Assembly (NCBI GenBank): GCA_951406725.2
Contig: OX597814.1
Location: 121,830,001 to 121,894,000 of the forward strand
Origin: Octopus vulgaris
Taxonomy: Eukaryota
Reading direction: 5' to 3'
DNA: 64,000 nucleotides
Shown here: positions 20,060 through 58,622 of the stretch, one piece after another
Numbering within the stretch: the first letter of the stretch is position 1
Layout of the letters: every line of letters starts with the position of its first letter
Made by a program: the position numbers and the translations under genes
The notes under the pieces: model-generated
The model's database searches: none
The model's input: only the letters and a program-made list of their open reading frames with translations
What the model was told of the DNA's origin: nothing

Positions 20060-20425
20060 TAAACAAACGAACGACAGCGACGTCGGCTGCTGGTCGCAAT
20101 TTCAGGTGACAGAATGGAACAAAAGCACAATAGAGGACATTAAAATGTTCGGGCAGATAGATGACACAAAGGCGGACAAGAGAAATAATTAGGACAAACA
20201 AAACAGACGGGTCATTCTTGGCTTTCTTTCATCAGTCAACTACCAGAAGTCACAACCATTTGGAGCAGTTACACTTGAGATGGTTCGATCTGGTTGTCCC
20301 CCAAAATGTCTAAGCTAAGAGCATTAGACCCCTTTGTAAGACGAAAAAAAAACAAACAAACGAAAAGAAACGGAGAACATGGTACACAATTACGAACACA
20401 AGAACAAGAAATAACAGGTGTCTTT
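20060..20425. mobile_element. Unclassified dispersed repeat 'X', copy 1
   Basis: Shares blocks with 43410-43760 and 51058-51420: tcatcagtcaa, cttgagat, ctaagctaagagcattaga and aataacaggtgtcttt. Confidence 0.6.
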
Positions 20426-41998: not shown

Positions 41999-42724
41999 AC
42001 TGCAAATATTATAATAGTACTCACAAATTTTCGTGACAATTTTTTTTTCTTTTTTTACAAAAGCTCATAAAATGAATAAAACTCATTTTCGATGAAGACC
42101 ACAGGAAAATGCTCACGTGATACATTAACAATACACACACGTCCAAAATTCGTATCAATGAATCAATGTGTTTTTATAAAACCTTCAAGCAGTTTCCGCA
42201 CTTTCATATTCGTCAACATCTGAAACCATTATTAACAAATGTAACATGGAGGCCGGCTGGCAAAACCGTTAGCATGCCGAAAAGAATGCTCAACGGCATC
42301 TTGTCCGTCTTTTCCTTCACAGTTGAAATTCCGTCGAGGCCGATTTTACCTTTCGTCATTTCAGAGTCGATAAAATAAGCCGATGTAAACGCCTACTCTT
42401 ATCCCCTAAACTTTTACGCTTTTGTTTGAACTTATCAAGACAGCGATCTTGTAGAATCGTCAGAAGGTCGGAAGAAGTTTTTTTTTTTTTAAATAATTCT
42501 TCTGGCTTTATCTATGACTTGTTTCAGTCATCAAATCTTGGCCAAGCGGGGGCATTGCCTTGAAGAATTTTAGTCGAAAAATCGACCCCAGTACTAATTT
42601 TCTTGAGCCTGGTAGTTATTCTTTTGGCCACTTCTGAGTTACGGGACGTAAACACAACAACACCGGTTGTCAAGCGGTGCTGGGAGAAACACAGACAAAA
42701 ACACAGATACATAAACAAACACAC

Positions 42725-42756
<32 letters not shown>

Positions 42757-42819
42757 ATATATACATATATATATATATGTGTGTGTGTATGTATATATAT
42801 GCATATACATATATATATA

Positions 42820-42958
<139 letters not shown>

Positions 42959-42965
42959 TACATAT

Positions 42966-43337
42966 ATATATTAATAAAAGGAATTCCGACCTTGTCTGAT
43001 TTTCACGTTTTATTTACAATCTTATAATGATATAAGATAATATAATAAAATAAAATAAAATAATAGAATGTTAAATGTTCATTCTGATTGTATTTCATGG
43101 TGATCTTCAGTTCATGCTTCACAATTTCACGGTCAAAAATTGTGAAGCATGACTGTCACCACTACGACATGAACCTCAAGATTGCAGAATTTAATGCATG
43201 AAAGTACTAGTTCAATCAGAATGAACATTTAACATTCTATTATTTTATTTTATTTTATTATATTATCTTATATCATTATAAGATTGTAAATAAAACGTGA
43301 AAATCAGACAAGGTCGGAATTCCTTTTATTAATATAT
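42966..43337. repeat. Perfect 125-bp inverted repeat with a 122-bp structured spacer (candidate Penelope-like inverted terminal repeat)
   Basis: 42966-43090 is the exact reverse complement of 43213-43337 (checked base by base). The spacer holds a 16-bp perfect hairpin and hammerhead-like motifs. Confidence 0.95.
43170..43214 (+). ncRNA. Minimal type I hammerhead-ribozyme-like motif with one core substitution
   Basis: TGAAC-CTCAAGA-t-TGCA(gaatttaa)TGCA-t-GAAA-GTAC-TA-GTTCA: perfect stem I, 4-bp stem II, palindromic AGTACT stem III and a UH site. CTGAAGA reads CTCAAGA. Confidence 0.65.
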
Positions 43338-43361
43338 TCTTCTATACACAATCACACACAC

Positions 43362-43409
<48 letters not shown>

Positions 43410-43412
<3 letters not shown>

Positions 43413-43760
43413 TAAACAGTAAAAATAATTACAGACATGGACAAGAACATGAAACGCCACAGAGACGACACAAGAACCACAGGACGGGACATTCGAAGCC
43501 CTCAGTCATCAGTCAAGAACCAGATCATCTTAGCAATTTCGGCTGATTAATCTTGAGATTGCTCCGATATGGCAGCCGCCAAGGGAAATCTAAGCCAAGT
43601 GCATTAGATCCCCTGGAAGAAAGCTTCGAATGTATACAACACGAGGACGGAAAACGAACGAATACACGAACAAAAATACAGAATACGTGACAACAATAAG
43701 AATACAAAAACGTAAAAACAATAACGGTAAAATAAAGTATAAAAAATAAACAACAAAACA
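43410..43760. mobile_element. Unclassified dispersed repeat 'X', copy 2, flanked by (TA)n on both sides
   Basis: Homologous to 20060-20425 and 51058-51420 (ccagatcatctt-gcaat, cggctg-tta, aaggga-aa-taagc, cattagat-cc-tggaa). Confidence 0.7.
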
Positions 43761-51057: not shown

Positions 51058-51420
51058 AGGGAGAAGAACGCAAAACATCCAGACAGTTAGGTGATGCAAA
51101 AAAGGGACAAAATATCTAGTTCCAGATCATCTTTGCAATCGGCTGGTTATAGTTGAGACTGCGCCAATCTGGCCAGCTCGAAGGGAAAAATAAGCTAGGA
51201 TCATTAGATTCCATGGAACAAAGCAGCGAATGTATGCGAAAACAAACACGGAAAAATCCCAGAGAAATGTTACACAAATACAAATGCAATTAACATAACA
51301 TAATAACAGGTGTCTTTCGACTAAGGACGAATGAAATTAAGCTGGCTTGTGTGGAAGTAAAGCTTTACGGTAGGGTCATAAGATTTAACAGGCATAGGAG
51401 GGAACTTAGATGTTGCACGG
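51058..51420. mobile_element. Unclassified dispersed repeat 'X', copy 3
   Basis: Homologous to copies 1 and 2 and starts at a (TA)n run. Confidence 0.65.
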
Positions 51421-53408: not shown

Positions 53409-55349
53409 CAGCGGTGATATCAACAGAAGCGACTGTGCTTTTAACACTGGTTTTGCTCGCCTGACTTCGGTAAATTTGCAGCAAGACATAACCATATCTC
53501 CCATCCATCAGACCCAACATTGTGAAATGTGACCTCACCACTTCATACATGCATACTTTGAACGTTTAATACGAATACACTTCAATGCCTATGCACGAGT
53601 CATTTAAGTGACCTTTAAATGTTCCCACAACCTGCTAGAAATAAGTGCCAAACTTCCCTCAAATCTTAGTGTTATTACCATGAAAATAGGACAGCGGCTA
53701 TGATTATATATCTACTCAAGCATACCTAAGCTGAGGTTAAACGTTCACTTTTTATACAAGGTAACATTCCAATGCGCTCATCTCTCGTACATATTTAACT
53801 TAGCTTGTCTATGGTTATCTCCCCTCTTTTTGATCTGACTTTTCTTTTTCTTTGTGTCTTCACCGTGATACTTTTATTATGGATTAAGAGAACATACCTG
53901 TCTTCCTCTGAGTATTTGTTTACCACTTTTTAGTTTAAATATTCCTATATAAGAAATTACATGTCAGTTTCAGTTATATATCACAACGTTCGGAGTTGTA
54001 CTCTTTGCTAGGCTGAAGAATTTATTTTTCTCATCCCTAAAATGTTTCCGAATCCCTATATTCAACCGACCTATGATGGTGTCTTATGTATATTCGAAAT
54101 AATCAGTTCCACATATTTATACTTTAAATGCGTGATGAGTGCCAATTTATGATTAAATTATGAATTAATCTCATTTCCAGTGGAACTTGATATTTTTATT
54201 CAAGACTTTTATACAAGCTAGTTGTTAATGTGCCACAACAACAAAAACAAATGTTTGAGCCTGATAAACGAGAGAAGTTCTGACGTATTACACTTGACTA
54301 TTTCCCGGAGAATAATGTAAATCTTACATTTGACCCTGCTCTGATTATTCTTGATGTTGAAACTATTATTTGAAATAATTGACCCTCCACCTATTTAGTA
54401 TTTTAGTATATGGTCAGTAAGCCTTTATAATTAAAGTATCAATTAATATTATTTCCTGGTAGCACTTAATATTTTGCTTTTTATTAATATTCCTTTATAG
54501 CAAACAAGAGCTACAATATGAGTAAAATAATGGAGAATTATTGACCTATAAAAGACTCCTTCATGGGAAAAATTTATGTTTTAATGGCAACAAAATATTC
54601 AACCTAGGACACGATTGCTATAATTGAGACAGATGTGAACATAAACATCACCAGGGTAAATGAATTAATCTATGCAATAAAAAATGGCAGTGGAGAGAGG
54701 CTTAATTATGTCAAACTGTGAGTCACCTAATAAATTATCCCTTTCCTGGCTTGGTATTCTGTCAAAATAAAAGTTGGGCGAATAAAAGCAAAAAAATATT
54801 TTCCTAATTTCTTCTGTAAAATTGACAATTACTGATGATATTTTGGTGAACTCAAACTCTTAGTGTTTAGTGGTGGGAGCGTAACCATCTACAGAAAAAA
54901 ATACCAAAACAAACTTGGCTGGCATAAATGTAAAAGTAAACCCCAAATCGGATATATAAAATCGATATTTTATAACGTCTGCAAAGAAAATGCATGGTAA
55001 TTTGTCCACAGTAAATTTTTTCCAAATTCTCGGAAGAAATAGTACGAATAGCGAAATGATAGGTCATATGTGCAATGATTCCAAGTTGGTAGAGGTTTGC
55101 CAGTGCATGTTTTCCCAAGAATTCAGGGCAGGTGGTATGAGAAAGGTATGAGGGCCATATGATGGGTGTTATGAGATAGTAGAATAAAGCACAGCTTAAT
55201 GTATGACGTGTCAATTTAACTGAAATCGTGTAGTCTATTCGAAGACAAAGTGAAAAATGACGGAATTATTACCCTTCGGTATAAACAACAGGAATAATGA
55301 ACATTCATCGCTTAACGGCGTTAATAAATTATGAATTTATTGATATAGA

Positions 55350-55516
55350 GGCGCAGGAGTGGTTGTGTGGTAAGTAGGTTGCTTAGCAACCACATGGTTC
55401 TGAGTTCATTCCCACTGCGTGGCACCTTGGGCAAGTTTCTTCTACTATAGCCTCGGGCCGACCAAAGCCTTGTGAGTGGATTTGGTAGACGGAAACTGAA
55501 AGAAGTCCGTCGTATA

Positions 55517-57239: not shown

Positions 57240-58197
57240 CGTACGTACATGCAGAGTGGTTGTCTCTTCCTTATACAGAGTTTGACCACCTCCTGTACAT
57301 ACACCTCACAATCATGGCATCTGATGTGACTTTTTAAACCAGACAATGTTCTGAAAAGACACCCAGAAAGATTGCACCTCCGATTTGGACCACCAAGTTC
57401 TGCTATTTGTGGATCTTAAAATGTCTTATGAGGCCTTGCAAACATTCTGGCATATACTGCATTCGAAGGTGTTCACATACATATAGGCAGAATAGTTGGT
57501 AAAGGTTCGTTTTCTATGCGTTCGCAGATGAGATTTGAGGCCAGCAAAAGACAGGCATGGTTTGTCCCAGACTGTGCACGCATAGAGGTCATTATCATTC
57601 ACCTTCTCAATTTTTACACATTTCCTTAGATCTCTTTTGAGTCTTACATGCGTTATTCTGGCCTCTTCAAATGCTTTCACTTCACTCCACACCTTTGTTC
57701 GCCATCCAGCTGAATCCGAAGCAAGGGTTTCTATATCTTTTACTCTCTTTTACTCCTAGTTGTTTCAGTCATTTGACTGCGGCCATGCTGAAGCACCGTC
57801 TTTAATCGAGCAACTCGACCCCGGGACTTATTCTTTGTAAGCCTAGTACTTATTCTATCGCTCACTTTTTCCGAACCACTAAGTAACGGGGACATAAACA
57901 CACCAGCATCGGTTATCAAGTAATGCTAGGGGGACAAACACAGACACACAAACACACACACGCATATATATACATATATACGACGGGCTTCTTTCAGTTT
58001 CCGTCTACCAAATCCACTCACAAGGCTTTGGTCGGCCCGAGGCTATAGTAGAATACACTTGCCCAAGGTGCCACGCAGTGGGACTGAACCCGGAACCATG
58101 TGGTTGGTAAACAAGCTACTTACCACACAACCACTCCTGCGCCTTCCATCTTGGAACAATTCCAAGTGACTTCATATTAGTCCTTATGCCATCCTTA
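57240..58197 (-). mobile_element. RTE-clade LINE 3' end with three C2H2-like zinc fingers, interrupted by SINE B
   Basis: [15 protein letters not shown] | SINE | IETLASDSAGWRTKVWSEVKAFEEAR (RTE C-terminal pattern). This is followed by CTVWDKPCLSFAGLKSHLRTH, CSICQNVCKAS (broken) and CNLSGCLFRTLSGLKSHIRCH. Confidence 0.82.
57736..58143 (-). mobile_element. SINE family B, full length, young, inserted in the RTE
   Basis: Near-consensus copy. A possible short TSD atctt lies at 57735-57739 and 58148-58152. Confidence 0.95.
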
Positions 58198-58210
58198 CAT
58201 ACATACATAC

Positions 58211-58241
<31 letters not shown>

Positions 58242-58266
58242 CATACATACATACATGCATACATAC

Positions 58267-58331
<65 letters not shown>

Positions 58332-58334
58332 TGC

Positions 58335-58622
58335 ATTTACAATCCAGGAACAGGAGATTGCCGAACAAGAGAGAGTGACGCCTTTGTAATCCCAAGGTGC
58401 AACCGCATGTATAGGCTACGTCATGCTTCTCTGGAAAACATTACGCATGTGATTAGCAGATGTCCTAAAATAGCCTTACGGTACTACCTCGCTATGCAGC
58501 ACAATGTTGTTGCTAAAACAGTTTACAATGCCATCCGTAAAAAAAGACTGTCCTGAAACAAAGTTAGAAAATCCTTCTGTTTTGGAATACATTCATAAAC
58601 ACCAACTCAAAGAATACTGGAA
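58335..58622 (+). mobile_element. Internal fragment of an RLE-type (R4/Dong-like) non-LTR element: decayed CCHC knuckle region
   Basis: [10 protein letters not shown]...[51 protein letters not shown] matches the pattern AIQEQ...CRLC...ExxxHxxSxC...RHDxVA. Confidence 0.8.

Follow-up and report, generated by a model that had tools for sequence, protein, structure and literature searches.

A head-to-head pair of truncated hammerhead repeats in Octopus vulgaris, probably formed by one fold-back insertion of a Penelope-like element

The inverted repeat and its parts

The window analysed here is a 64-kb stretch of Octopus vulgaris DNA (64,000 nucleotides of contig OX597814.1), and an exact inverted-repeat scan located in it a hairpin locus of about 400 bases. 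The two arms (42966–43090 and 43213–43337) are complementary at 125 of 125 positions and enclose a spacer of 122 nt, and they form the longest perfect non-simple inverted repeat of the window. The original prediction, made from the letters of the window, had described two 125-bp arms with zero mismatches, which the scan bears out. It had also called every other repeat of the window decayed, which is slightly overstated, as a perfect inverted repeat of 66 bp, the second longest (55440–55505/57988–58053), is also present. Two further features were absent from that prediction. One is a 16-bp perfect inverted repeat nested inside the spacer (43112–43127/43137–43152, with a 9-nt loop) and the other is a 26-nt stretch (43338–43363) that separates the right arm from the (TA)n following it and is derived from the dispersed repeat family described below.

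The locus consists of two copies of this family joined head to head. The left target flank is a (TA)/(CA)n microsatellite (42725–42971, TRF) that extends into the beginning of the left arm, and the right target flank is a (TA)n run (43364–43410, TRF); a target duplication is indistinguishable inside (TA)n. The sense copy (about 43128–43363, plus strand) is 5′-truncated. It starts at the 9-nt loop (43128–43136), which forms the head-to-head junction and, judged by the points at which relatives depart, marks the truncation point. It continues through family sequence upstream of the hammerhead (43137–43169), in which the run contigs identify a private base at 43166, and through the hammerhead itself (43170–43214) into the right arm, which is 81% A + T and which we read as the 3′ part of a pLTR. 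Only this copy ends in the 26-nt extension, in which 20 of the 26 nt are A or C; family contigs cover it in all four sequencing runs compared, and we read it as the ‘tail’ of a Penelope-like element (PLE). The inverted copy (43127–42966, minus strand) opens with the 16 nt that perfectly mirror 43137–43152, the junction palindrome, and closes with the left arm, which stops at the short, untailed end of the family, an end that in relatives passes into (TA)n. The two copies are perfect mirror images over these 16 nt and over the 125 nt of the arms. Between the two stretches lies a scrambled remnant of the hammerhead region (43091–43111, minus strand), traced by alignment and block matching and matched by no descriptor, in which about 21 nt replace about 60. 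In the sense copy, 43238–43305 is predicted to form a long AU-rich hairpin that contains AATAAA.

Several other repeats lie in the window. Beyond the right (TA)n flank, a second dispersed element (43411–43720, minus strand) sits between two (TA)n runs and is 76% and 70% alike to window copies at 51122–51255 and 20206–20332, respectively. A CTGATGA half-core is present in two of its three copies, no complete hammerhead was found by descriptor in the three window copies, and the element is possibly the end of another TA-targeting retroelement. On the other side of the locus, a common SINE-like family is represented at 42400–42725, and about nine decayed relatives of this copy occur elsewhere in the window. 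The 66-bp repeat mentioned above falls within an inverted pair of another short repeat family (55349–55505 and 57988–58144), whose members are 2.5 kb apart and share perfect stretches of 66, 29 and 27 bp. A plus-strand frame at 58170–58553 includes a Cys/His-rich stretch with the look of what is presumably a zinc-knuckle remnant of a non-LTR retrotransposon.

The hammerhead motifs

The right-hand motif (43170–43214) has the layout of a minimal type I hammerhead, as had been described. Stem I is formed by 43170–43174 and 43210–43214 and stem II by 43183–43186 and 43195–43198, while the core CTCAAGA occupies 43175–43181, GAAA 43200–43203 and the palindrome 43203–43208; the predicted cut site is 43209^43210. 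Among the 17 rows returned by a relaxed type I scan, this motif alone has a palindromic stem III. A stricter descriptor, which was tuned after the motif had been seen, matched once in the window and not at all in 300 dinucleotide shuffles, both strands being scanned. The isolated fold is no more stable than shuffles (z −0.29). Rfam, which had been proposed as a check, did not recognise the motif: at E ≤ 10 no hammerhead model was among the 43 and 20 matches, all of which are of hairpin or microsatellite type and lie under the gathering score. A reading of the hairpin as a miRNA precursor was rejected.

The canonical core CUGANGA...GAAA...UH is broken in the window copy by a C in place of G at 43177 (G5C). 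Because this private change is among the core mutations known to abolish catalysis (PMC11875169), the one complete hammerhead of the locus is predicted from its sequence to be inactive. The G10.1–C11.1 pair is also missing; U and U flank stem II, which opens with U–A. The palindromic helix III can pair with itself (predicted duplex −6.8 kcal/mol), and the predicted pairing probability of stem I falls from about 0.5 in the sense copy alone to 0.03 in the whole element. According to these folding models, read-through RNA of the locus would form the 125-bp duplex instead of the ribozyme.

Stems I and II and the palindromic helix III are present in the right copy only. The left motif (43116–43090, minus strand) had been put forward as a deleted counterpart that keeps the canonical core. 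The core letters are indeed there, as CTGAAGA at 43110–43104, but no ribozyme fold is possible: the motif has no stem III, no cut site and no 3′ strand of stem I, and it went unmatched in both the relaxed and the strict scans. As a second ribozyme or dimer partner it was rejected, lying on the opposite strand and lacking helix III. Its alignment with the right copy requires four or five small deletions, and by block matching one of its blocks corresponds to a part of the sense copy out of order. Two readings of the left CTGAAGA are available, one as the original core following a deletion between two CATGA repeats, the other as a two-piece junction of CTG with AAGA. The lesions of the inverted copy cover the ribozyme body and are flanked on either side by perfect sequence, and the perfect arm begins 3 nt beyond the predicted cut. 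At the position of 43177, where the right copy has C, the left copy seems to retain G, and therefore at least one change is copy-specific; a very recent event on a single template accounts for this difference only by polymerase error.

An abundant dispersed family

Contigs of four of 24 public sequencing runs (X21, X22, X12 and X1, the last only guessed to be RNA) were aligned to 42960–43365 at 80% likeness, with the repeated parts 42960–43074 and 43229–43280 skipped. Under three organism labels, 747 (X21), 432 (X22), 94 (X12) and 17 (X1) contigs aligned. They identify 43137–43363 as part of an abundant dispersed family, and the relatives that the original prediction had anticipated do exist in all four runs. 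The comparison gave no cover of 42960–43099, slight cover of 43100–43127 and no piece across the inversion, and is uninformative about the inversion itself. The family has about 3,000–13,000 times the depth of the low-depth contigs listed, which hints at thousands of copies, depth not being copy number. No second copy of the element, or of the upstream family motif, is present in the 64-kb window.

The window base is private at 43166, 43177 and 43315, where another base accounts for 98–100% of depth in every run. At 43177 this other base is G, which makes up more than 99% of depth in all four runs (167676.6 of 168121.8 in X21), and the family majority has the canonical CUGAAGA, in agreement with the CTGAAGA core that was to be sought in the consensus. 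Four polymorphic sites are listed in the 45-nt hammerhead, three in the 8-nt loop II and one at U4, and none falls in its 24 stem positions (Fisher p 0.014, post hoc); no compensatory stem changes are among the hammerhead variants listed. At the sequence level, variation of the loop and not of the stems is as expected if the hammerhead fold were under selection in the source elements. The variant at U4 (U4C, 43176) reaches 37%, 20%, 40% and 77% of depth in X21, X22, X12 and X1, respectively, in few but deep contigs, and represents a large subfamily with an altered ribozyme core.

Upstream of 43137 the relatives pass into other, non-inverted sequence, seen over 30 nt (at least 8–10 contigs each in X21, X22 and X12), most of those listed departing from the window sequence before 43137 and some before 43132. 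The hairpin therefore looks specific to this copy. Outside the skipped repeated parts, no strand-change joints indicative of other inverted copies are listed in the run contigs. Downstream, the family has two 3′ ends about 26 nt apart. At the short end, 43337 is followed by (TA)n in at least 15 contigs of X21 and at least 10 of X22, and the long end near 43358–43363 is followed mostly by (TA)-rich sequence (at least 16 in X21, at least 10 and 6 in X22, and at least 2 in X12). Among the ends listed, loose ends occur behind 43358 in X21 and X22 and behind 43363 in X22 and X12. At the locus itself, the left arm stops at the short end and the right copy runs on through the extension.

An 18-nt family pattern matched five loci in metagenomes, all without flanking similarity and taken as chance matches. 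Two scans of viral contigs and two of GTDB gave no match. Short DNA motifs of the family and of the neighbouring element had no exact match in the supplement of PMC8557442, in which line breaks can hide matches, or in that of PMC13282606, which contains no sequences; short peptide motifs met only unrelated RT-core rows in the former.

One reading frame has no stop from 43301 across the tail, and five of the seven variants listed at 43312–43327 are third-position changes (p 0.045, post hoc). Rarer relatives have an in-frame start codon that precedes the short end by about 12 codons (region 43297–43327; few table rows), as in Pen2a_Av, whose pLTR and tail hold the first ORF codons, 12 and 22 aa (PMC3846280). 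Together, the frame, the start codon and the third-position bias may be an extra pointer to a PLE origin, as a weak hint at the sequence level. The window copy has no start codon in this frame, and the abundant form of the family may therefore be non-autonomous.

Origin of the head-to-head pair

We consider it very probable that the element is of PLE type. The Penelope-like context proposed originally is upheld: the head-to-head truncated copy, the junction palindrome, the one-sided tail, the (TA)n target and the minimal hammerhead fit the PLE signature. PLE insertions have been described with inverted 5′-truncated copies, a tail of 30–40 bp at one end and (TA)n targeting (PMC8557442), and head-to-head inverted pLTRs with junction palindromes, one of them with a 31-bp tail, have been read as products of self-priming (PMC3846280). 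As no RT or GIY-YIG sequence is linked to the family, the assignment rests on non-coding signatures; among the long stop-to-stop frames of the window, none was recognised by eye as a PLE-like ORF. The locus is probably a truncated and recent PLE insertion and not a new kind of fold-back element. The family is a putatively new member of a kind already described, the architecture of which is in print, and with 190 Penelope-like families counted in O. vulgaris (PMC13282606) it may already be catalogued in a repeat library of the species.

The reading that we favour, and judge to be probable, is that this pair of 5′-truncated copies of an abundant hammerhead repeat, likely a PLE pLTR, arose by one recent, self-primed fold-back insertion. 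A PLE RT/GIY-YIG protein encoded at another locus would act in trans, nick (TA)n and begin reverse transcription at the tailed end, internally on the family RNA. Synthesis of the first copy would halt about 35–45 nt upstream of the hammerhead, whereupon the cDNA end would fold back and prime a second copy. The second copy would slip several times over the first 80 nt, leaving the scrambled left hammerhead and the 9-nt loop, before its resolution at the untailed end and attachment to (TA)n. We prefer this fold-back origin because the truncation points of the two copies lie within 9 nt of each other and because both arms carry a rare allele, C43315/G42988, which makes up 0.4%, 0.1%, 1.5% and 0% of depth in the four runs; the shared allele and the near-equal truncations fit one template copied twice. 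The insertion is a dead-end copy with no encoded protein.

Two separate cDNAs of the same PLE-type family, primed on the two strands of one (TA)n cut, at the tailed and the untailed RT start site, and united 5′ to 5′ by error-prone end joining, are a rather unlikely source of the pair, to which we nevertheless allow some weight since the two arms terminate at different ones of the family's two ends. On AT-rich DNA the anole PLE protein cleaves both strands and extends them, and from its two adjacent RT start sites the PLE tail has been explained as the interval, an AC-rich region, between two internal starts (PMC11167929). Two cDNAs would also permit a left G together with a right C at 43177, and only 3 nt separate the perfect arm from the predicted cut. 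A cleaved or folded ribozyme may have hindered synthesis of the left cDNA. Against this, two independent truncations must coincide within 9 nt, the shared rare allele demands that both cDNAs came from the same source RNA, and for the anole element no reads ending at the cleavage site are reported in vivo (PMC11167929).

We also regard as unlikely an older PLE insertion in which a palindrome with arms of about 200 bp decayed by deletions at its centre while conversion kept the outer arms identical. Such a history matches the private allele shared by the arms and the right-only changes in the spacer, and microhomology deletions do disable PLE copies after insertion (PMC3846280). The weight of the identical arms depends on assumed age. 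Of about 177 assessable sites, 3 distinguish the sense copy from the family majority, and the zero differences between the arms have a P0 of 0.24, 0.06 or about 0.014 if one, two or all three of these changes followed insertion; conversion is not required in the first two cases but would be in the third, and over this range the zero differences are compatible with youth. The deletions, moreover, are all on one side and leave intact the innermost palindrome, which is expected to be the most fragile part, and the out-of-order block in the left copy points to template switching in one burst.

The original prediction had proposed a distinct fold-back retroelement with the hairpin as its unit, which the relatives do not support. 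A self-contained element, whether MITE-like or ribozyme-bearing, would explain the long perfect terminal inverted repeats, the non-coding interior and the TA target, and is very improbable given that the relatives are non-inverted and divergent upstream of 43137 (the same at least 8–10 contigs each in X21, X22 and X12), that they run 26 nt past the right ‘TIR’ and that the arrangement, with its one-sided tail, is asymmetric, unlike a TIR element. An assembly or read fold-back artefact is just as improbable, for although the arms are perfectly identical and PLE inverted structures are known to trouble assemblies (PMC8557442), the mirror halts at the natural short end of the family and leaves out the tail, and the inner parts of the two copies are not mirror images.

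The coincidence of the inverted-copy lesions with the ribozyme and its cut site is the one odd detail left over. With lesions that cover the ribozyme, lie between perfect stretches and end 3 nt beyond the cut site, the inverted copy could be the fossil of reverse transcription across an RNA that its hammerhead had already cleaved in vivo, which we hold to be doubtful. Were it true, hammerhead cleavage would shape inverted insertions, and a family-wide pile-up of breakpoints at the cut site would be the first genomic evidence of PLE hammerhead cleavage during retrotransposition. The role of the hammerhead in endonuclease-bearing PLEs is described as unclear (PMC8557442), and the anole PLE protein does not require the ribozyme in vitro (PMC11167929). 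As a truncated copy with a published architecture, the single locus matters little in itself. It is an entry to an abundant hammerhead-bearing octopus family, and in the literature searched a single listed paper names a cephalopod PLE hammerhead, Hydra-1_oBim, which differs from that of the window family. With so high a copy number, the role of the hammerhead and the origin of inverted pLTRs can be tested by junction counts in one genome.

Comparison with known elements

Non-LTR retrozymes (PMC7229834; bioRxiv 10.64898/2026.07.22.740005) resemble the octopus element in being non-coding and AT-rich, in having a type I hammerhead and in their proposed PLE origin. Unlike these, the octopus locus has no head-to-tail tandem, and the relatives listed end in (TA)n and not in the next monomer. 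Head-to-tail units, each with a hammerhead, are expected of a non-LTR retrozyme; the locus has no such array, and the listed 3′ ends at 43337–43363 are (TA)-rich.

Minimal hammerheads (PMC4209133) share with the octopus motif a 5-bp stem I, an unpaired base after position 9 and a self-pairing palindromic helix III. Their G10.1–C11.1 pair is reported as conserved, and pairs of motifs 100–700 bp apart on opposite strands have been noted among them. The octopus motif differs from them in its lack of the G10.1–C11.1 pair, in its 4-bp stem II and, in the window copy, in G5C.

Some likeness is seen with hammerheads of the Hydra clade (Penelope-1 to -8_HM, Hydra-1_aJap and Hydra-1_cRog; PMC8557442 File S2), which have CUGANGA followed by U, a 4-bp stem II, U before GAA, a short stem I, a (TA)n target and a position near the 3′ end. 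U stands on both sides of stem II in 14 of the 25 Hydra-clade families in File S2, as it does in the octopus family; the comparison covered the Hydra-clade rows, and with respect to Neptune and Poseidon this layout may not be clade-specific. The helix III region is a 6-nt palindrome in octopus versus 9–10 nt in the Hydra-clade rows, and the octopus member of the clade, Hydra-1_Obim, differs from the window family in both its hammerhead and its 3′ end (PMC8557442). An inverted copy with a hammerhead on each strand has been described for Penelope-13_HM (PMC8557442).

The architecture as a whole is like that of EN+ PLEs with inverted pLTRs. Pen2a_Av of Adineta vaga (PMC3846280) and the insertions in Fig. 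2 of PMC8557442 have a head-to-head inverted truncated copy with a junction palindrome, and EN+ PLEs of this arrangement further share the tail at one end only and the AT-rich or (TA)n target. In contrast to them, no ORF lies between the octopus repeats and the octopus inverted copy is internally scrambled. The octopus tail, at 26 nt, is slightly below the 30–40 nt of published PLE tails (PMC8557442). The distance from the cut site to the family end is 124–155 nt in the octopus family, compared with 29–152 nt in 23 of the 24 families tabulated and 354 nt in one outlier. Among PLEs, inverted pairs of this kind are an ordinary by-product that has already been published.
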